NCBI GenBank assembly: GCA_039028615.1
Contig: JBCCHT010000017.1
Coordinates: 96,001 to 160,000, forward strand
Reading direction: 5' to 3'
DNA: 64,000 bases
From: Myxococcota bacterium
GTDB lineage: Bacteria > Myxococcota_A > Polyangia > Nannocystales > Nannocystaceae
The translations under genes were made by a program, and so were the position numbers. Positions within the stretch are counted from its first letter, which is position 1. Each line of letters starts with the position of its first letter. The notes beneath the pieces were generated by a model. It saw nothing but the letters and a program-made list of their open reading frames with translations, had not been told where the DNA came from and ran no database searches. Shown piece by piece: positions 20,229 to 28,851 of the stretch.

Positions 20229-20369
20229 GGCCGCAGCCTAGCTCGGGCCTCTCGGAACGCCAATCCGAACCGTCCCACGGCAAGATAGGCCGGTTTCGCC
20301 CTCGACCCCTCCGCCAAGCTCCCCATCGCCGTGTCATCGACTGCGCCCCGCGGGTCAATGGGCTGGGTG

Positions 20370-22097
20370 ATGACCCGTTTTCGAGCCCTCGAATCGAGCG
20401 AGCAGCGCTGGAGCCAGACCCGAGCCCGCGTGTTGGCCGTGTCGACGCTCGTGCTCGCAATCGCGTGCGGAGACGACAGCCAAGCGCCGATGATGGACTC
20501 CGACGAGACCGGCACCGAGGGCACGAGTGCGGGCCTCGAGAGCACCGACGAAGGCATCGCCGACAGCAGCGACGGCTCGAACGACGAGAGCAGCAGCGGG
20601 GGCCCGGCCGAGCCCGAGTACGGACCGTCCTACGCCGTCGTCGTCAGCTCGGGGCCCTCTCTTCCGGTCCTGCAGGTCATCGACGTGACCGAGCCGGGCG
20701 TCGTGCCGGAGCTTCATACCCTGGTCGAACGCACCGCGCCCGACGAGGCGATCCGTGGCGCACTCCAGACCAACACGTGGTCGGCCTACGCGGTCCGCAA
20801 CGGCTTCGACCATCGGCTGGTGCTGCACGATCTCGTCGCGGAGCCCCTGGGGCCCGTGATCGAGGTCGGCGGCCTCCCGGCGGGTGCCCCCACCTTGCAC
20901 ATGGACGAGGCTCGCACCCTCTTGGCCGTGACCGTGGCCGAGTCCGCGGGGCAAGCCGGCGAGGGCTTCATCGTCGACCTCGAGGGCGACCCCAGCACCG
21001 CCGTGCCCCTGCCCGACGCCCCCGATCGCCTCTCGCTGAGGCTGTCGCCCGATGCCCGGTGGCTGTGGGGTTTCGGCAACGACGGCGACCTGCCCGGGCA
21101 GGCATGGGTGGCCCCGATCGTCGACGGTACCCCCGAGCCGTTCACCGCCTTGACCGCCTTCACCGAGCAGGAGCAGACCTACGGTGCGTGGTCCGTGATG
21201 GGTCCCGACAGCGCGCTGTTCGGCGTGGGCCCCGGCAGCTCGGGCCTGGTGCACGCCGACGTCTCGGACTGGCCCGCCACCACGGTCACCGAGCTGTTCC
21301 CCATCGATCCCTCGAGCTGGGGCAACTGGGTCTTCGCTCGAGATGCCTCCCAGGTGATGAAGCTCGACGGCCCTCCCGGCGCCCGCGACTTTCACTTCGA
21401 CGCCGAGCTCGTCTCCGTCGTCGACGGCGTTCCGCAACCGGTGATCGAAATCGATCTTCCGAGCGCCTCGATTCACGAAGCGTTCATCACCCCCGACGGT
21501 GCCTTCGCCTTCTTCACCACCGTGTACCAGGCCGGCCTCGACCAAGTGCAGGTCGCGTGGCTCCACGGCCCCGACCCCGGCACCCCGCAGCCCATCGGCA
21601 CCGTGCCCTACAGTTTTGTGCTTCAGCCCGATCCGGTCCTGCTGCTCGACGGCTGGGCGGTGTGGATCGCGGGCGTCGGCGGCCTGCAGGGTGTGTCGAT
21701 CGACGGCGACACGCTCAGCGCCGCCCAGCAGCTGACGCCGATGAGCGACGTCGTGAGCTCGGTCGACGTCATCGGCCAGCGCGTGTTCTATTCGGTCAGC
21801 GATCCCGCGGGCGCCCACGTGCCCCAGGCCCTGTGGATGCTCGACCTTTCCGGTAGCGAGCCCTCGGAGCCGGTCGCGGTACCGCACCCGCTACCGAAGG
21901 GCATGTCGGCCACGACGGGGTACGCATCGCCGTCGCAGGACCAGTTCTTCTACGGGACCTTCGAATCGGGCGGACCGGGGCAGCTGAGTAACCGGGGCCT
22001 GTGGAGCCGGCACGCCGACACGGCCGGGAGCGAGATGCTGCTGCTCGAGAGCACCGACCTGTGGGGGTTCAACGTCCTGTCGCCGCCGCTTCGGTGA
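20370..22097 (+). CDS. Lipoprotein, predicted beta-propeller (TolB-like repeats)
   Basis: AIACGDD lipobox, acidic linker, LSPDAR/ITPDG-type repeats. Confidence 0.7.
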   Translation: MTRFRALESSEQRWSQTRARVLAVSTLVLAIACGDDSQAPMMDSDETGTEGTSAGLESTDEGIADSSDGSNDESSSGGPAEPEYGPSYAVVVSSGPSLPVLQVIDVTEPGVVPELHTLVERTAPDEAIRGALQTNTWSAYAVRNGFDHRLVLHDLVAEPLGPVIEVGGLPAGAPTLHMDEARTLLAVTVAESAGQAGEGFIVDLEGDPSTAVPLPDAPDRLSLRLSPDARWLWGFGNDGDLPGQAWVAPIVDGTPEPFTALTAFTEQEQTYGAWSVMGPDSALFGVGPGSSGLVHADVSDWPATTVTELFPIDPSSWGNWVFARDASQVMKLDGPPGARDFHFDAELVSVVDGVPQPVIEIDLPSASIHEAFITPDGAFAFFTTVYQAGLDQVQVAWLHGPDPGTPQPIGTVPYSFVLQPDPVLLLDGWAVWIAGVGGLQGVSIDGDTLSAAQQLTPMSDVVSSVDVIGQRVFYSVSDPAGAHVPQALWMLDLSGSEPSEPVAVPHPLPKGMSATTGYASPSQDQFFYGTFESGGPGQLSNRGLWSRHADTAGSEMLLLESTDLWGFNVLSPPLR

Positions 22098-22115: not shown

Positions 22116-22148
22116 ACGAACCCGACGGTCTCCGACCGTCGGGTTCGT
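22116..22148. terminator. Hairpin between convergent genes, probable bidirectional terminator
   Basis: Perfect 15-bp inverted repeat ACGAACCCGACGGTC-tcc-GACCGTCGGGTTCGT. Confidence 0.75.
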
Positions 22149-22187
22149 GTTCGAGGGAGGTCAGCCTCCCTCGCTCCTACGCCGCGC

Positions 22188-23933
22188 CTACCAGCGGTAG
22201 GTCAGCAACAGCCGCAGGTCGCGGAGGTTCTGGATCCCGACCTGTCCCTGCGCTTCGTTCGGCTCGATCTGCCGGTCACGCCAGATCAGCGTCGTGTAGA
22301 ACACGTTGCGCCACAGGTAGACGTGGGCCGCGACACGGTACTGCAGCTCGCGCAGCTGACGACGCAAGTCCGAGCCGAGCTCGGCGGGGGGATCTTCGAA
22401 TTCGGTGGTGAGGTACTGACCGAAGTCGGCGGCGACCATGAGCCGCTTTTTGATCGGCAGCACGCCGAGCTGGGCGTTGTAGGCGAACTGGTAGTTCTTG
22501 AAGTTGAGCTCCCGCTTCGCGTAGCCCTCGGCCAGCAAGATCAACCGCCGCCAGCGGACCACCGTCTGGATGTTGGCGGCGGGATAGCGCTCCTGCGCCC
22601 GCTGGTCGTACTTGGCACCCACGGCCACCGCGACGGTGGTCGGAGCGGGCGTATAGAGGAAGGGCGAGTCCCAGCGGCTGTAGTAGCCGACGATGTTCAT
22701 CCAGCTCTGCGCACCCACCGACCAGGTGTAGTTGCGGTTGTCGTCGGGGAAGAAGCGACCGCCGATGTTGCCGTTGAAGCGACCGGAGCCGCCGCCGATG
22801 AAGGTGCGGTAGAGGAACTTGCCCTTCTTGTCGAGCGGACCGCCCACCTCGACGGCAGCACCGTTGCCCTGCTCGAAGGCGTTGTAGACGTAGAACGCCG
22901 GGTCGGCGAGCAGGCGCTTGTGCACCGAGCGAACGAGCTCGAGGGAGAGGCCACCGCCGCCGGAGTTGACGTTGAGGTAGTGCCCCTTCTTGCCCAGGGG
23001 AACCTGGAAGAGGGCGAAGGTCATGCGGGGCGTTCGCTCGGCCCGCATGGAGAGCAGGAAGAACGAGTTCTGGATGAAGGGCATCTGCCCCAGCACCCGC
23101 ATCTGGATCGAGCTGAACTGAGTGTCGAAGCGCTCGAACTCGCCGTCGTTGCGCTGGGCCTCGGCGTCGTTCTGGATGACGGCGCTCTGCTCGAGACGGG
23201 CCACGACGGAGAAGCGGAAGTCGCCCTCGCCCTGGCAGACGGTCACCGCGGTGTCGATGCGACAGCCGAGGTCGTTGCAGTCGATGTTGCCGTCGCCGTC
23301 GTTGTCGATGCCGTCGGAGCAGAAGTAGTTGTTGCGCTCACCGTCCGCGTCGCCGCCCACGCCGAGCAAGTCGTCGGGGGTCTGGCCGGGCTCGAGGCCC
23401 ACGGAGCTACCGTCGGTGACGACCTTGGTGCCGCCGGTCGTGGTGGTCTTGGTGTCGCCGCCGGAGGTGCTGGGCGCGGGACCAGCGAGGTCCCAGGAGC
23501 CCTTGCAGGCGTCGGTCTTGCCGCAGTCGAAGTCGTCGCAGTCGACGTAGCCGTCGGAGTCGTTGTCGACCCAGTCGCTGCATCGCGCGTCGTTGTACTC
23601 CTCCTCGCCGTCGGGCTGGCAGGCGGGGTCCTTCTTGCAGTCGGCGTCGCCGCAGTCGAAGACGAGGTCGCCGTCGTTGTCCTGGCCGTCGTCGCAGACC
23701 AGCTCCTTGGGGCGCGGGGTGTGCTGCGCGGGCGAGCTCTGGTCGGGAGCGCTCTGCTCCGGGCTCACCTGGGCGGGGGTGTCGGGCTCGAGCTCCACGG
23801 AGCCGAGGCCGAGCCCGGGACTCCACGGTGACGCATGAACCACGCCGGGCAGTAGCAGGGCGCACAGGCCCAGGCAGCTCAGCCACGAGAAGGGGTGCAG
23901 GGCACTTTGCCTCTGAATCATCGGTTCGTTCAC
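22188..23933 (-). CDS. Outer-membrane beta-barrel/porin-like protein with 3 N-terminal CxDxxDNDxDxxxDCxDxxC repeats
   Basis: Signal peptide, three Cys/Asp repeats, amphipathic beta strands, C-terminal beta-signal LRLLLTYRW. Start GTG 23933 or ATG 23921. Confidence 0.75.
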   Translation of the reverse strand: MNEPMIQRQSALHPFSWLSCLGLCALLLPGVVHASPWSPGLGLGSVELEPDTPAQVSPEQSAPDQSSPAQHTPRPKELVCDDGQDNDGDLVFDCGDADCKKDPACQPDGEEEYNDARCSDWVDNDSDGYVDCDDFDCGKTDACKGSWDLAGPAPSTSGGDTKTTTTGGTKVVTDGSSVGLEPGQTPDDLLGVGGDADGERNNYFCSDGIDNDGDGNIDCNDLGCRIDTAVTVCQGEGDFRFSVVARLEQSAVIQNDAEAQRNDGEFERFDTQFSSIQMRVLGQMPFIQNSFFLLSMRAERTPRMTFALFQVPLGKKGHYLNVNSGGGGLSLELVRSVHKRLLADPAFYVYNAFEQGNGAAVEVGGPLDKKGKFLYRTFIGGGSGRFNGNIGGRFFPDDNRNYTWSVGAQSWMNIVGYYSRWDSPFLYTPAPTTVAVAVGAKYDQRAQERYPAANIQTVVRWRRLILLAEGYAKRELNFKNYQFAYNAQLGVLPIKKRLMVAADFGQYLTTEFEDPPAELGSDLRRQLRELQYRVAAHVYLWRNVFYTTLIWRDRQIEPNEAQGQVGIQNLRDLRLLLTYRW

Positions 23934-26002
23934 TCCCGCCGTCCGGTCGCGCAGTACCCCAGCTCGGGGCAAACGGTGACCTCGGCGTTGTGGCTGCAAT
24001 CGAAGTCGTCGCAGTCGGTAAAGCCGTCGTTGTCGTTGTCCAGGCCGTCGGAGCAGCGCTGGTCGGTCTCGTCGTTGCTCAGGCCCAGGCTCTCCTGGCA
24101 GACCTGGCGCACGGCGACGTCGTCGTTCTGCGAGCAACCGAAGTCACCGCAGTCGATGAAGCCGTTGCCGTCGTTGTCGATGCCGTCGGTGCAGCTGGCG
24201 ACGTCGTCCTCGAGCACCGCCTCGCACAGCTCGATGAGCTCGGGATCCTCGGTCTGCGAGCACGAGAAGTCGGCGCAGTCGATGAACCCGTCGTCGTCGT
24301 TGTCGATGCCGTCGCTGCACTCCTCGACGCTGTCCTCGGAGGGACACAGGTCCTGGAGCTCGGGATCGGTGCTCATCGAGCACGAGAAGTCGGCGCAGTC
24401 GGCAAAGCCGTCCTCGTCGTTGTCCTCGCCGTCACTGCACTCGGCGACGGTGTCCTCGGCCCCCCCCGCGGGGTCGCCGGGGTTCTTGCCCCCGCCGCCG
24501 TGGATCGGCCCCTGCGGCAGCAGGGTCGCGGCCGAGCCGCACAGCTCCTGGAGGACGGGGTCGTCGCTCATCGAGCAGCCGAAGTCCTCGCAGTCGATGA
24601 AGCCGTTGCCGTCGTTGTCGATGTCGTCGTCGCAGGTCTCGGGGGTGTTCTCTTGCGGGCAGACGTCTTCGATGCCGGGGTCGTTGCTCTGCGAGCACGA
24701 GAAATCCATGCAGTCGATGAAGCCGTCGCCGTCGTTGTCGATGCCGTCGCTGCAGCTCTCGACGCTGGCCTCACAGGCGGCCAGCACGGCGGGGTCGCTG
24801 CTCTGCGAGCAGCCGAAGTCCTCGCAGTCGGTGAAGCCGTTGCCGTCGTTGTCGAGCCCATCGGTGCACTGCGACAGCGAGCTCTCCTCGCCGTTGCAGT
24901 GGGCCATGAAGTCGGCGCCGGGGTTCATCCCGCACTCGGGGTCGTCGCAGTCGAAGAACCCGTCGCCGTCGTTGTCGCGGCCGTCGGAGCAGTCGGCGAG
25001 GGTCTCTTCGAGATCGTCGCAGATGGTCAGGACGTCGGGGTCTTCGCTCTGCGAGCAGTCATCGTCTTCGCAGTCGATGAGGTTGTCGCCGTCGTTGTCC
25101 TGGCCGTCGCGGCAATCGTCGAAGGCGATCTCCTGACACAAGGAGAGCACCTCGGGGTCGTCGCTGCGCGAGCAGCCGTAGTCGGCGCAGTCGATGTAGC
25201 CGTCGAAGTCGTTGTCGAGCCCGTCGCGGCACGCGTCGGGGCCGGTCTCGGGCGGAGCGCAGGCTCGCGTGGCCGCACAGGACTGGTTGTCGTCGCGAGC
25301 CAAGACCGCGCAGCAGTGCTCGCCCACGAGGTCGGGATCGTCCTCGAGCCCCAGGGCCTCCAGCGCCGCGAGGTACTCGGGGCTGTCCTCGATGCACTCG
25401 AGGTCGCAGTCGTCCTCGCAATCGACCTTGCCGTCGCCGTCGTTGTCCTGGCCGTCGCCGCAGCTATCGTTGCCGCCCTCGGCACAGACGTCGACCAGCG
25501 GGCTGCGGCTGCAGCCGAAGTCGCCGCAGTCCATGAACCCGTTGGAGTCGTTGTCGATGCCGTCGCTGCACAGCTCGTTGGTGACCTCGCGCAGGCAGCC
25601 GGTCTCGAAGACGTCCTGGCACTTGCGGTCACCGCAGTCGAACTGACCGTTGAGGTCGTTGTCGACGCGGTCGGAGCACAGGGCGAGCTGATCGCTGCAA
25701 TCGCGCCGGGTCGAGCCGTCCTCGAGGGTGATGGTGGGGCAGCCGAAGGCCGGGTCCTCCGGGGTGTCCACGGGGAACTCGGGGACGATCTCGCCGCAGA
25801 CGGTGCTGAGCGTGAGGCAGTCGGGATCTTGGCAATCGATCAGGCAGTCGCCGTCGTTGTCGAGATCATCGGTGCACGAGAGCTCGTCGTTCTCGTAGCC
25901 GAGAACGGGAAATGGAGGCTCCTCGTAGCACGCGGCACCGATGCCGTACGCTGCGAGCAGGGGCAGGGCCATGCCCGAGAGCGCGCGCCTTATTTGAGAC
26001 AT
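23930..26002 (-). CDS. Lipoprotein with 14 Cys/Asp-rich putative Ca2+-binding repeats
   Basis: GAAC lipobox and 14 copies of CxD(G)xDNDx(D/N)GxxDCxDxxC. Confidence 0.85.
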   Translation of the reverse strand: MSQIRRALSGMALPLLAAYGIGAACYEEPPFPVLGYENDELSCTDDLDNDGDCLIDCQDPDCLTLSTVCGEIVPEFPVDTPEDPAFGCPTITLEDGSTRRDCSDQLALCSDRVDNDLNGQFDCGDRKCQDVFETGCLREVTNELCSDGIDNDSNGFMDCGDFGCSRSPLVDVCAEGGNDSCGDGQDNDGDGKVDCEDDCDLECIEDSPEYLAALEALGLEDDPDLVGEHCCAVLARDDNQSCAATRACAPPETGPDACRDGLDNDFDGYIDCADYGCSRSDDPEVLSLCQEIAFDDCRDGQDNDGDNLIDCEDDDCSQSEDPDVLTICDDLEETLADCSDGRDNDGDGFFDCDDPECGMNPGADFMAHCNGEESSLSQCTDGLDNDGNGFTDCEDFGCSQSSDPAVLAACEASVESCSDGIDNDGDGFIDCMDFSCSQSNDPGIEDVCPQENTPETCDDDIDNDGNGFIDCEDFGCSMSDDPVLQELCGSAATLLPQGPIHGGGGKNPGDPAGGAEDTVAECSDGEDNDEDGFADCADFSCSMSTDPELQDLCPSEDSVEECSDGIDNDDDGFIDCADFSCSQTEDPELIELCEAVLEDDVASCTDGIDNDGNGFIDCGDFGCSQNDDVAVRQVCQESLGLSNDETDQRCSDGLDNDNDGFTDCDDFDCSHNAEVTVCPELGYCATGRRE

Positions 26003-26970
26003 GCTGCGCGGCCCGTGCCGAAGCGCCGTTTGAAGTCGATGTGCACCATGCAGGAGCTGGGCTGGCCTTCGGCGTTGCCCAGGCGTCCCGACGACACGTA
26101 GCCCATCATGTGGCGCTGCATCTGCTCGCGCTGGTCGGGCGGGATGTCGCGGCCAATGTGGCGGTGCTCGGCGAACTCCTCGACCATGCGACGCAGCGCG
26201 GCGTCGTCGAGGGACTCGATGATGGCGGCCACCGCCGAGTCACCGCGCAGGGCCGCGATCACGTCGTCGACCATGGCCGGCTCGACGTCGTAGCGCATCT
26301 TGCAGACCTTGCGGCACTCCGAGTACTTGTTCTTGTGACGCCACTTCACCGAGTGACCGTCCTCGGTGGACACGAGCCGGTTGTAGGTGCCCTTGCCCTC
26401 GGTGTCTTCCTCGGCCGAGTGCAGCGAGGTGAGGATGAAGTCGGGCACGCCGTGCGACCAGATCCCGCGCCGGGCCTCCATGGCCTCGCGCTGCGCCGCG
26501 ACGTACTCGGGGCGCCCGGGCTCGTCGTCGATGGTCAGGGTGTGGGCCATGCCGCGGCGAATGAGGTCTTCGGCCAGCGTGGGGCAGTCGACGAGCATGC
26601 GGCCGTAGGTGTCGAGCGCCCCGTCGGTGGTGCACTCCCAGTAGCCCTTGCGCGCGTGCAGGGCCGACATCTTGGCGATGACGTAGAGCTCTTTTTCCGT
26701 CCAGCTGCCCCACTGGTGCACGGGGCCGTAGGACTCGAGCGTGTTGTAGCCCGCGAGGCGAGCCTTGGCGCCCTGCAGATCGCCGGACAGCACGCGGAAG
26801 CTGTCGCCGTCGTTGAAGGTCACCTGGACCAGCTCGCCGTTGAGCAGGACCTTGCTGCGGGGCTCGGCTGCGTCGGCCGGCCGCGGTGAGCTCAGAGTCA
26901 GGCCAACGAACAGGGCCAAGCCCAATCCGCTGCGCCGGGAGAGTCGACGAGTGTCGTCGTGCATTGCCAT
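25990..26970 (-). CDS. Secreted thermonuclease (staphylococcal nuclease family)
   Basis: AAGGAG RBS, signal peptide, NDGDSF, ARLAGYNTLE, DTYGRML and AMEARRGIW motifs. Confidence 0.85.
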   Translation of the reverse strand: MAMHDDTRRLSRRSGLGLALFVGLTLSSPRPADAAEPRSKVLLNGELVQVTFNDGDSFRVLSGDLQGAKARLAGYNTLESYGPVHQWGSWTEKELYVIAKMSALHARKGYWECTTDGALDTYGRMLVDCPTLAEDLIRRGMAHTLTIDDEPGRPEYVAAQREAMEARRGIWSHGVPDFILTSLHSAEEDTEGKGTYNRLVSTEDGHSVKWRHKNKYSECRKVCKMRYDVEPAMVDDVIAALRGDSAVAAIIESLDDAALRRMVEEFAEHRHIGRDIPPDQREQMQRHMMGYVSSGRLGNAEGQPSSCMVHIDFKRRFGTGRAACLK

Positions 26971-27275
26971 GCTCCTTTGGGAGCGGGCCGCACCGAGGTC
27001 CTCACGAGCGCACGCCCGCGGTCTCGGATTGCTTGCTTCCGCCCCTTGCACCGCGCGCATCATGGACGAAAGCGACCCGCGACAGCAAACCCCAAATCGC
27101 GCTCCGCGCGGCGGTGTGTCGTCGGGGCGTCGACGAGGTTACGTGGGGTGAAATCGCAATGATCTGCGATCACTGGCCATCGCCAGGCAAGCGCCATCGT
27201 AGGCCCCAGCCCCCAGTCTCGGGCGAGATCGGGCGTTTTGCCTCCCGGCCGCGGAGCCAGCGCGGACGCCAGAGA

Positions 27276-27686
27276 TCAGCCGTTGACGACCCCGTGGGGC
27301 ACCAGCTCGGCCAAATAGGGCGCTAGATACTCCACCGCCGACTCCCGCCGATGCACCACCCGGTAGGGATGCGCGGGGGACTTGAGCCGGAACATCACCC
27401 GGATCGCCCCGCGGACCATCGCCGAAGGAATGATGAGCGCCAACGCGGCCACGTGCGCATTCAGACGATCTTCGTTGGCCCGAGCAAACCGGTCGAACGA
27501 TTTGATCTCGGCCCACTCGAACCGAGACGTGTTCGTCATGTCGACCTGCATGCAAAACCGTTCGGCCCGATCGAGCGTCGCGCTCAACCCGGTCGCCACC
27601 TGCTGCACGGTCTCGGCATCGACGACCCGTGAGAAACGCAGGACGACCAACGGCCACGCACTCACGTCGACGAGCGTTCGAGTCAC
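27276..27686 (-). CDS. STAS/SpoIIAA-like (STAS/SEC14) small protein, paralog 1
   Basis: VDVSAWPLVV...IIPSAMVRGAIR...YLAPYL. GGGAG RBS. Confidence 0.7.
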   Translation of the reverse strand: MTRTLVDVSAWPLVVLRFSRVVDAETVQQVATGLSATLDRAERFCMQVDMTNTSRFEWAEIKSFDRFARANEDRLNAHVAALALIIPSAMVRGAIRVMFRLKSPAHPYRVVHRRESAVEYLAPYLAELVPHGVVNG

Positions 27687-27716
27687 GACGACTCCCTCGC
27701 TCTCGCTCGGCCGAGC

Positions 27717-28142
27717 CTACCCATTGGCGGCAGCCCGGGGGCTCAGCTCGGAGAGATACGGTGCGATGTACTCGAGCGCGGCATCTCGCTCGTGCACGAC
27801 TCGGTACGGATGCCCGGGCGCCTTGAGCTTGAACAACACCCGAATTGCCCCGCGCACCATCGCCGACGGAATGATGAGCGCGAGCGCGGCGACCTGCGAG
27901 TCGAGGCGCTCTCCGTTGGCCCGAGCAAAAGCGTCGAAGACTTTGATCTCCGACCATTCGAACCGAATCGTCGCCGTCATGTCGACCACGACGCAAAAAC
28001 GTTGCGCCCGATCGAGCCCCGCCACCAGACCAGCCACGATGGCCCGCGCCGCATGGGCATCGACGATCTTCGGACCCCGTACGACGAGCGTAGGCCAAGC
28101 ACTCTCGTCGACGAAGTCTCGGGGCAAAGAGCCTTCCGACAC
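27717..28142 (-). CDS. STAS/SpoIIAA-like small protein, paralog 2
   Basis: VDESAWPTLV...IIPSAMVRGAIR...YIAPYL. Confidence 0.7.
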   Translation of the reverse strand: MSEGSLPRDFVDESAWPTLVVRGPKIVDAHAARAIVAGLVAGLDRAQRFCVVVDMTATIRFEWSEIKVFDAFARANGERLDSQVAALALIIPSAMVRGAIRVLFKLKAPGHPYRVVHERDAALEYIAPYLSELSPRAAANG

Positions 28143-28319
28143 GACTTCAGGCTATCAGCTGACACCCGACAGAAGATCACCAACGTCGTCATCAATTCGG
28201 TCCACTTCGGCGACTCGCGCCCTCCATGCATGCATGTACGAACAAGCCGACACCATCACATCTAGCGATTCGTCAGTCGGTGTCGCACTGCATCGCAGTT
28301 GGTGAAGCGCTCGAACGAA

Positions 28320-28757
28320 TCAGCCGTTGGCGGCCATGCCCTGTCGAAGCTGCGCCAGATACGGTTCCATGTACTCGAGGGCTTCACTGCGATGTTGCAG
28401 CACTCGATGGGCGTATCCCGGGGAGTGAATCTGAAACAGCACCTTGATGGCCCCCCGCACCATGGCCGAGAGAATGACCAGCGCGACGGTGAACAACAGG
28501 GCATTGTGACGCTCTTTGCTCGCACGAGCATAGGCACCAAATGCCTTGAGTTCCTTCCAGTCGAGGCGTGTCGACTGCGTCAGATCGACCTCGAGACAGA
28601 ACGGCTCACCTCGATCGAGCGCTGCGTCCAAGCCAGTGGTGATGCCGACCACAGACGCCTGATCGAACACTGGTGGTCCTCTCAGGACGACATGTGGCCA
28701 TGCACTGTCATCGACATAAACCCAAGGTTGTGTCCCCCGCGACACCTTTTTCACCAT
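28320..28757 (-). CDS. STAS/SpoIIAA-like small protein, paralog 3
   Basis: VDDSAWPHVV...VILSAMVRGAIK...YMEPYL. Start uncertain. Confidence 0.65.
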   Translation of the reverse strand: MVKKVSRGTQPWVYVDDSAWPHVVLRGPPVFDQASVVGITTGLDAALDRGEPFCLEVDLTQSTRLDWKELKAFGAYARASKERHNALLFTVALVILSAMVRGAIKVLFQIHSPGYAHRVLQHRSEALEYMEPYLAQLRQGMAANG

Positions 28758-28851
28758 ATCAGGTTTCGCCTGACCATAGTGCATTGAAGCCGTCGCCAAT
28801 TCGGTCCGGGTCGGTGACACAGGGCCCACACCTACGCGGGGGTACGCGGTG

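Follow-up and report, generated by a model that had tools for sequence, protein, structure and literature searches.

What might a myxobacterium do with a secreted nuclease, a lipoprotein carrying 14 acidic repeats and an outer-membrane barrel bearing three of the same repeats, all encoded back to back on one strand? The question is raised by three open reading frames (ORFs) with products of 326, 690 and 581 amino acids in a 64,000-nt stretch of contig JBCCHT010000017.1 from a Myxococcota bacterium of the family Nannocystaceae (the window, within which all coordinates are given; Table 1), which a first-pass annotation of the sequence had read as a candidate surface machine for scavenging DNA. 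We find that the three genes form a real, strongly conserved and uncharacterised cassette that follows the theme of a hydrolase paired with a specific porin and, by analogy with chitinase and chitoporin, we propose with moderate confidence that it acts as an outer-membrane digest-and-import unit for nucleic acids.

Searches of 41 relatives located the barrel in 17; nuclease matches came from those 17 genomes, plus one that was weak and stand-alone. Across the phylum, 44 of 301 Myxococcota genomes, representing 29 of 209 genera and 14 families, carry the barrel, and the 44 best nuclease matches fall in exactly these genomes; in 42 of the 44 the nuclease sits just upstream of the barrel, no more than 4 kb away and with contig and strand shared, and the other two have the genes on different small contigs (contig breaks). 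A scan of GTDB returned 204 barrel loci, and among the best 80 of these, in which gene order was examined, 70 show the order nuclease-lipoprotein-barrel, 10 are cut by contig ends and none is an exception. The closest named relatives are Nannocystaceae, the cassette occurs in the cultured genera Plesiocystis, Enhygromyxa and Paraliomyxa, and no barrel relatives were found in viral contigs; its range outside Myxococcota is judged from the same 80 loci together with the Myxococcota genome searches. Stand-alone relatives of the nuclease (40–50% identity) occur without a barrel, in varied neighbourhoods, and in a tree whose rows were picked by similarity to the query the cassette nucleases (35 rows, against 19 stand-alone) occupy their own branch with support of 100/100. 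Because gene order is fixed while the flanking genes differ freely from locus to locus, the cassette is a self-contained, strictly conserved three-gene unit.

The arrangement of the genes also points to a single transcript. Genes 1 and 2 (nuclease and lipoprotein) overlap by 13 nt, as the first reading of the sequence had it, whereas the 4-nt overlap reported for genes 2 and 3 exists only if gene 3 begins at the uncertain GTG 23933; the ESM Atlas record of the barrel protein begins at ATG 23921, which would leave an 8-nt gap instead. The ribosome-binding motif AGGAG is indeed present at the front of the operon and fits a different start from the one first chosen: it sits only 1 nt ahead of ATG 26970, as against 7 nt ahead of ATG 26964, and because of this spacing the nuclease probably starts at 26964 (its Atlas record also begins at residue 3). 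The putative sigma70-type promoter has only 7 of 12 consensus matches and was missed by a strict scan; the same -35/-10 arrangement recurs in 42 of 69 upstream regions versus 4.3 ± 2.0 in shuffles, with a spacer of 17–18 nt in 40 of the 42, a pattern that was picked after viewing the sequences and in a sample in which kin are not independent. Conservation of this putative sigma70-like promoter, probably of the housekeeping type, together with the tight junctions and the 15-bp hairpin behind the last gene, leads us to infer that the three genes are co-transcribed. The first-pass annotation had hinged on two points, that the genes be co-conserved and co-transcribed and that the third product be a beta-barrel; we looked at both, and found the genes strictly co-conserved and probably co-transcribed, and the protein predicted to be a barrel, as described below.

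The product of gene 1 matches the staphylococcal nuclease (SNase) family PF00565 (E = 8e-6; 26.7 bits versus a cut-off of 21), its DxYGR stretch aligns to thermonuclease, and its structural model (predicted local distance difference test, pLDDT, 96) retrieved staphylococcal nuclease in all of the top 50 Foldseek rows (E about 2e-5, target TM 0.54–0.65); a sequence search of solved structures with the single nuclease gave no match. In the residue numbering of staphylococcal nuclease, the equivalents of Asp19, Asp21, Arg35, Glu43, Tyr85 and Arg87 are invariant in 54 of 54 sequences, as are six Cys. The signals of 67 homologues include a hydrophobic stretch in 66 and an AxA-type site in 60, with no Tat motif or lipobox in any, and by these signals the nuclease is an unlipidated enzyme exported by the Sec/signal peptidase I (SPI) route. 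Apart from the Asp40 position, discussed below, the active site is intact, in line with the secreted thermonuclease of the initial reading, and the protein is presumably catalytically active. Several nucleases of one family of loci (f28) lack a helical insert of about 70 residues.

Gene 3 encodes a protein that AlphaFold2 models with 16 strands, a helical loop after strand 5 and a terminal Trp581 (mean pLDDT 68.9; about 70–93 over most of the barrel), in agreement with the beta-barrel with three repeats and a terminal aromatic residue recognised earlier. Foldseek matched it to 16-stranded porins, with chitoporin in the top row (E = 4e-11) and Omp38, Omp32 and OprP (3e-9) also present, and VIA (Z 20–22, 6–12% identity) placed OmpT, OprB, OprO, OprP, chitoporin and PorB within about 1 Z unit, so that the likeness to OprO and OprP, posed as a question in the first pass, was recovered among several. 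The closest folds include the oligomer-specific channel chitoporin and the anion channels OprP, OprO and Omp32. The ESM Atlas annotates the barrel as Porin_O_P (0.96), and hhalign aligned its profile with that of 28 PF07396 porins (95.5%, E = 1.6e-8); a search of solved structures with the barrel profile gave no match. These model-based comparisons make the barrel a porin family of its own, with a remote relationship to the O/P class. Sixteen strands and an in-folded loop L3 are common to all classical porins and hence not diagnostic of Porin_O_P; judging from the fold match, L3 probably folds inward here as well. Among 32 barrels, 20 basic and 11 acidic residues sit at positions conserved at 80% or more, and the barrels have a median net charge of +7; on the polar faces of the strands, assigned from hydropathy rather than coordinates, 11 conserved positions are basic and 8 acidic. 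Loops L2–L5 and the periplasmic turns T1 and T4 are strongly conserved, L3 and L4 highly so, and T4 is long, a pattern that points to a specific anionic substrate and perhaps to a docking face on the periplasmic side. In one barrel homologue, P0126, the three repeats are preceded by an extra N-terminal domain and a lipoprotein-type signal.

The repeats that link genes 2 and 3 had been noted as a Ca2+-type motif; both arrays are present, although the motif is not new, being already curated as NCBIfam NF033662 (acid_disulf_rpt), which matches 14 stretches in the lipoprotein and three in the barrel protein (319.5 and 87.1 bits versus a cut-off of 41), with agreement from a motif count. The lipoprotein contains 189 Asp+Glu, 21 Lys+Arg and 65 Cys. 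Its lipobox (GAAC) is non-canonical; in homologues a Cys follows the hydrophobic stretch about 19 residues before repeat 1, and the protein is predicted to be anchored at Cys25. Homologous lipoproteins hold 5–18 repeats, and nearly every barrel homologue in which the region is present has three. The top sequence match of the lipoprotein in the PDB is the C-rich domain of Teneurin-4 (7PLP, E = 6.7e-4), reported to bind three Ca2+ with nine residues, eight of them acidic and one Asn (PMC9058538). Across the 17 repeats, the nine Ca2+ side-chain ligand positions are all kept in 4, eight are kept in 5 and seven in 8 (7–9 of 9 in the lipoprotein, 8–9 of 9 in the barrel repeats), and in homologues the seven core positions nearly always carry Asp, Asn or Glu. 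Because the repeats keep the ligands of a solved three-Ca2+ domain, Ca2+ binding is well supported by sequence. The barrel repeats retain the first and last positions better than the lipoprotein repeats do; as the first Glu and last Asp ligands are often lost in the latter, the lipoprotein repeats may bind fewer than three ions. Each repeat has four Cys, and the six-Cys teneurin pattern (1–3, 2–5, 4–6) does not occur. Matches of the lipoprotein to calmodulin reflect its DxDxDG composition and were rejected as EF-hands.

The same repeat matches 103 of 121 Myxococcota genomes (above the cut-off in 55), frequently with dozens of copies each, and appears to be a general extracytoplasmic module. 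A role as DNA mimic, one of the functions first suggested for it, is unlikely because the repeat is so common across the phylum. Elsewhere in this genome, an unlinked lipoprotein-like protein (G000:C1:610349-612319) combines nine related repeats with a Cu-binding_MopE match. The teneurin C-rich domain has been proposed to stem from a diatom or alga (PMC3278476), and among phyla Myxococcota are described as having the most bacterial teneurin-like proteins (PMC13018210). Motifs nearly identical to the domain are plentiful in Myxococcota, and a bacterial origin of the domain is worth considering.

How could these parts work together? In the digest-and-import reading, the nuclease would cut environmental or prey DNA or RNA at the outer membrane and the cassette's own porin would pass the resulting anionic fragments inward, its pore admitting short oligonucleotides or nucleotides. 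The repeat lipoprotein, together with the three repeats of the barrel protein, would keep the Sec-exported enzyme at the membrane. Folded with Ca2+, the repeats would form a spacer or scaffold, and they may also maintain a local supply of Ca2+ for the Ca2+-dependent nuclease. PhoD and PhoX phosphatases and a CNT nucleoside transporter, all encoded elsewhere in this genome, could process the imported products. The surface placement in the first-pass annotation fared less well, given the plain Sec/SPI signal, the lack of a lipid anchor on the nuclease and the default periplasmic topology. Since the N-terminal domains of classical porins, like outer-membrane lipoproteins by default, face the periplasm, we lean, if only slightly, towards a nuclease at the periplasmic face, under the pore, rather than at the outer face. 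The lipoprotein-type signal ahead of the repeats in P0126 fits an inner-leaflet anchor; the three secretins encoded in the genome make type II export possible. A bolder version, which we regard as doubtful, makes the 16-stranded barrel a dedicated nucleic-acid porin through which single-stranded DNA, RNA or oligonucleotides would be threaded directly to a Ca2+-dependent nuclease that the teneurin-like Ca2+ repeats clamp beneath it; such a "capture and shred" machine would feed predatory myxobacteria independently of TonB.

Several observations weigh against nucleic-acid import. The position of the Asp40 calcium ligand is Asn in 54 of 54 nucleases, and no literature was found on the effect of the D40N change on calcium in SNases; Asn is also present there in 5 of 20 parsed ordinary SNases (10 of 30 loci being unparsed) and, because ordinary members of the family share the change, it does not exclude membership. 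The genome encodes three other SNases. Among 96 domain-scanned flanking proteins (from 109 selected, the other 13 being scanned separately or shadow frames), no Pst, Pho, nucleotidase, phosphatase or nucleoside-transport gene turns up repeatedly, and no match to the UshA/CpdB-type 5_nucleotid_C domain was found in this genome. Purine auxotrophy was rejected as a driver, PurE being present in 40 of 41 genomes, so that by PurE the carriers are not auxotrophs. Weak searches found no true gene fusions among the cassette proteins, and none involving the nuclease. The PF07396 Pfam model matched 0 of 32 barrels at E up to 10, and because the top porins are nearly tied in VIA, the fold match does not single out a substrate. 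Finally, ExtI of Geobacter, an OprP-like porin in a conserved cluster, is reported to show no phosphate-starvation response and to affect selenite reduction (PMC5877670).

The import of phosphate, also raised in the first pass, would make the cassette a Pho-regulated scavenging system in which DNA is digested outside and the barrel, induced when phosphate is scarce, serves as a channel for phosphate or pyrophosphate in the manner of OprP/OprO. Its predicted Arg-rich lumen, together with the Porin_O_P annotation, the hhalign result and the presence of OprO and OprP among the top folds, speaks for such a channel. SNases release 3'-nucleotides and not free phosphate, and upstream of the cassette Pho-box-like sites occur in 10 of 69 regions versus 4.3, an excess due partly to kin and partly to the TTGTCA -35 box itself and scored with the E. 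coli consensus, so that there is no clear Pho-box enrichment and a conserved sigma70-like -35/-10 promoter instead. With no Pst or Pho neighbours, with separate PF07396 porins in 39 of 41 genomes (no cassette barrel being among those matches), and with ExtI as a case of such a porin being phosphate-independent, we think this explanation unlikely. A somewhat less unlikely alternative is that the barrel and the lipoprotein anchor or export a nuclease that trims extracellular DNA in the matrix of biofilms or swarms, any import being incidental. The secretins would permit export, a soluble nuclease would not stay in place without a tether, the repeat is widespread in large proteins of the phylum, and a mutant of the Bdellovibrio SNase Bd1934 is reported to have still degraded prey DNA and to have behaved differently on biofilms (PMC3593177). 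Against such surface display, the protein has a porin fold whose long, conserved, helical L3 is as in narrowed-pore channels, no POTRA or TPR export domain was found in it by a Pfam scan, and its predicted, conserved basic lumen suggests a transported anion.

Uptake of DNA for transformation would have the barrel admit DNA, the nuclease nick or trim it in the manner of EndA or NucA and ComEC take up one strand, perhaps powered by ExbB/ExbD. An ExbB-ExbD-ExbD set indeed lies directly upstream of the cassette in 14 distinct loci, ComEC follows immediately downstream, with no change of strand, in 12 of them, and the other two end at contig ends; yet all eight family-labelled loci of this kind belong to f28 and probably reflect one event, no other locus among the best 80 of 204 has ComEC beside the cassette, and in this genome ComEC lies on another contig. 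A 16-stranded porin with an in-folded L3 is, moreover, too narrow for duplex DNA, and we regard this use as highly improbable. The invariant Asn at the Asp40 position, the large disulfide-bonded extension of the nuclease and the probable housekeeping promoter would fit an envelope or adhesion complex stabilised by Ca2+. In it the SNase domain would bind nucleic acid or some other phosphodiester with little cleavage, and the porin would serve as a scaffold or let a small anion through; the teneurin counterpart of the repeat is likewise described as structural (PMC9058538). The other catalytic residues (equivalents of Asp21, Arg35, Glu43 and Arg87), invariant in all 54 nucleases, are hard to explain without catalysis, however, and Asn at position 40 is a common SNase variant, which makes this complex improbable.

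Table 1. Positions of the cassette genes and associated features in the window, and loci of one family with ExbB-ExbD-ExbD and ComEC
Feature	Position	Strand	Evidence
Putative sigma70-type promoter: -35 TTGCTG, 18 nt, -10 CATGAT	27059–27088	-	Pattern conserved upstream of homologues
Ribosome-binding site AGGAG, 7 nt before ATG 26964	26972–26976	-	Sequence
Nuclease of SNase fold: Sec/SPI signal, six conserved Cys, C-terminal extension	25990–26970 (probable start 26964)	-	PF00565; D19, D21, R36, N41, E44, Y87, R89 invariant 54/54
Predicted lipoprotein (Cys25) with 14 acidic double-disulfide repeats	23930–26002	-	NF033662 x14; 7PLP match
Outer-membrane protein: signal peptide, 3 repeats, predicted 16-stranded porin barrel (22191–23219), terminal Trp	22188–23933	-	AlphaFold2, Foldseek, VIA, ESM Atlas, hhalign
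N-terminal acidic double-disulfide repeats (three) of the barrel protein	23231–23696	-	NF033662 x3
Hairpin, 15 bp, 3-nt loop, U-rich tail; probable terminator	22116–22148	-	Sequence
f28 loci with ExbB-ExbD-ExbD and ComEC	L032, L035-L037, L039, L040, L042, L050	one strand	

Around the cassette in the window, the hairpin separates the operon from a convergent gene at 20331–22097 (+), which encodes a 588-aa predicted lipoprotein with no Pfam or NCBIfam match and may share the hairpin. Just upstream, at 27276–28829 (-), lie three tandem, small and similar-looking genes (136, 141 and 169 aa), two of which have weak DUF7793 matches under the cut-off; they are not recurring neighbours of the cassette. 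At other loci, a fourth, shorter repeat lipoprotein (5–6 repeats where counted) accompanies the cassette in 11 loci from two groups, downstream in L077, L078, L082, L084 and L100 and upstream on the opposite strand in L120, L121, L123, L129, L134 and L144. In 8 loci (e.g. L120:3053-4078) a member of the Exo_endo_phos family is encoded two genes upstream, a second, ordinary SNase is found near the cassette in three (L113:1387-2100, L136 and L138), and in one genome a PF07396 porin gene (G013:C1087:4620-5069, -) is directly downstream of, and convergent with, the cassette barrel. Two further candidates were discarded: P0124, an apparent lipoprotein-barrel fusion, contains an out-of-frame stretch and an internal signal peptide and is taken to be a frameshift artefact, and a recurring "neighbour" cluster of 27 members proved to be an antisense frame across the nuclease start.

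Each part of the cassette has a known counterpart from which it departs. With staphylococcal nuclease and PF00565 proteins such as Bdellovibrio Bd1934, the nuclease shares its fold, Ca2+ and phosphate ligands and Sec export; it differs from ordinary SNases in the Asn at position 40, three probable disulfides, a 150-residue C-terminal extension, its own tree branch and its strict linkage to a porin and a repeat lipoprotein. The barrel resembles OprP/OprO (PF07396) and ExtI in its 16 predicted strands, probably in-folded L3 and remote profile similarity, and may share their Arg-rich lumen, and OprP itself is described as a 16-stranded, phosphate-specific trimer (PMC4849052); unlike OprP and OprO, the cassette barrel has no Pfam match in 32 examples, only 8–9% identity, three N-terminal Ca2+-type repeats, no clear Pho box and a nuclease as partner. 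The repeat shares with the Teneurin-4 C-rich domain (human residues 834–871) its Cys spacing and 7–9 of 9 Ca2+ side-chain ligands, and differs in having four Cys rather than six and in forming tandem arrays of 5–18. As a whole, the cassette recalls SusC/SusD-type loci, which likewise combine an outer-membrane channel, a lipoprotein and a hydrolase in one operon; it has a 16-stranded barrel rather than a TonB-dependent one of 22 strands, with neither plug nor SusD fold, and a Pfam scan found no SusC/SusD families on the three proteins. A parallel for the proposed route is that of Vibrio, in which a chitinase and the chitoporin VhChiP serve the use of a polymer (PMC3558487): both pair a polymer hydrolase with a substrate-specific 16-stranded porin, whereas here the proposed substrate is nucleic acid, the porins share 6–9% identity, a repeat lipoprotein is included, and the three-gene cassette contains neither a periplasmic binding protein nor an ATP-binding cassette transporter.

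All three parts thus belong to or resemble known families, and it is their fixed combination that appears to be undescribed: in the literature searched, largely without subscription journals, we found no account of the cassette and none naming NF033662, acid_disulf_rpt or an "acidic double-disulfide" repeat. Secreted nucleases have been noted in metagenome-assembled genomes of Myxococcota, in passages that describe no such nuclease-lipoprotein-porin unit (PMC11495043). The recovery of DNA and RNA from prey by predatory and lytic myxobacteria has been little studied. We know of no classical porin specific for oligonucleotides. As the cassette consists of three single-copy, always-linked genes in cultured genera, the question it poses is directly testable, and it would for the first time place the NF033662 repeat in a functional context. 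That repeat, which is very common in Myxococcota proteins and has gone unstudied, resembles a calcium-binding domain of animal teneurins.

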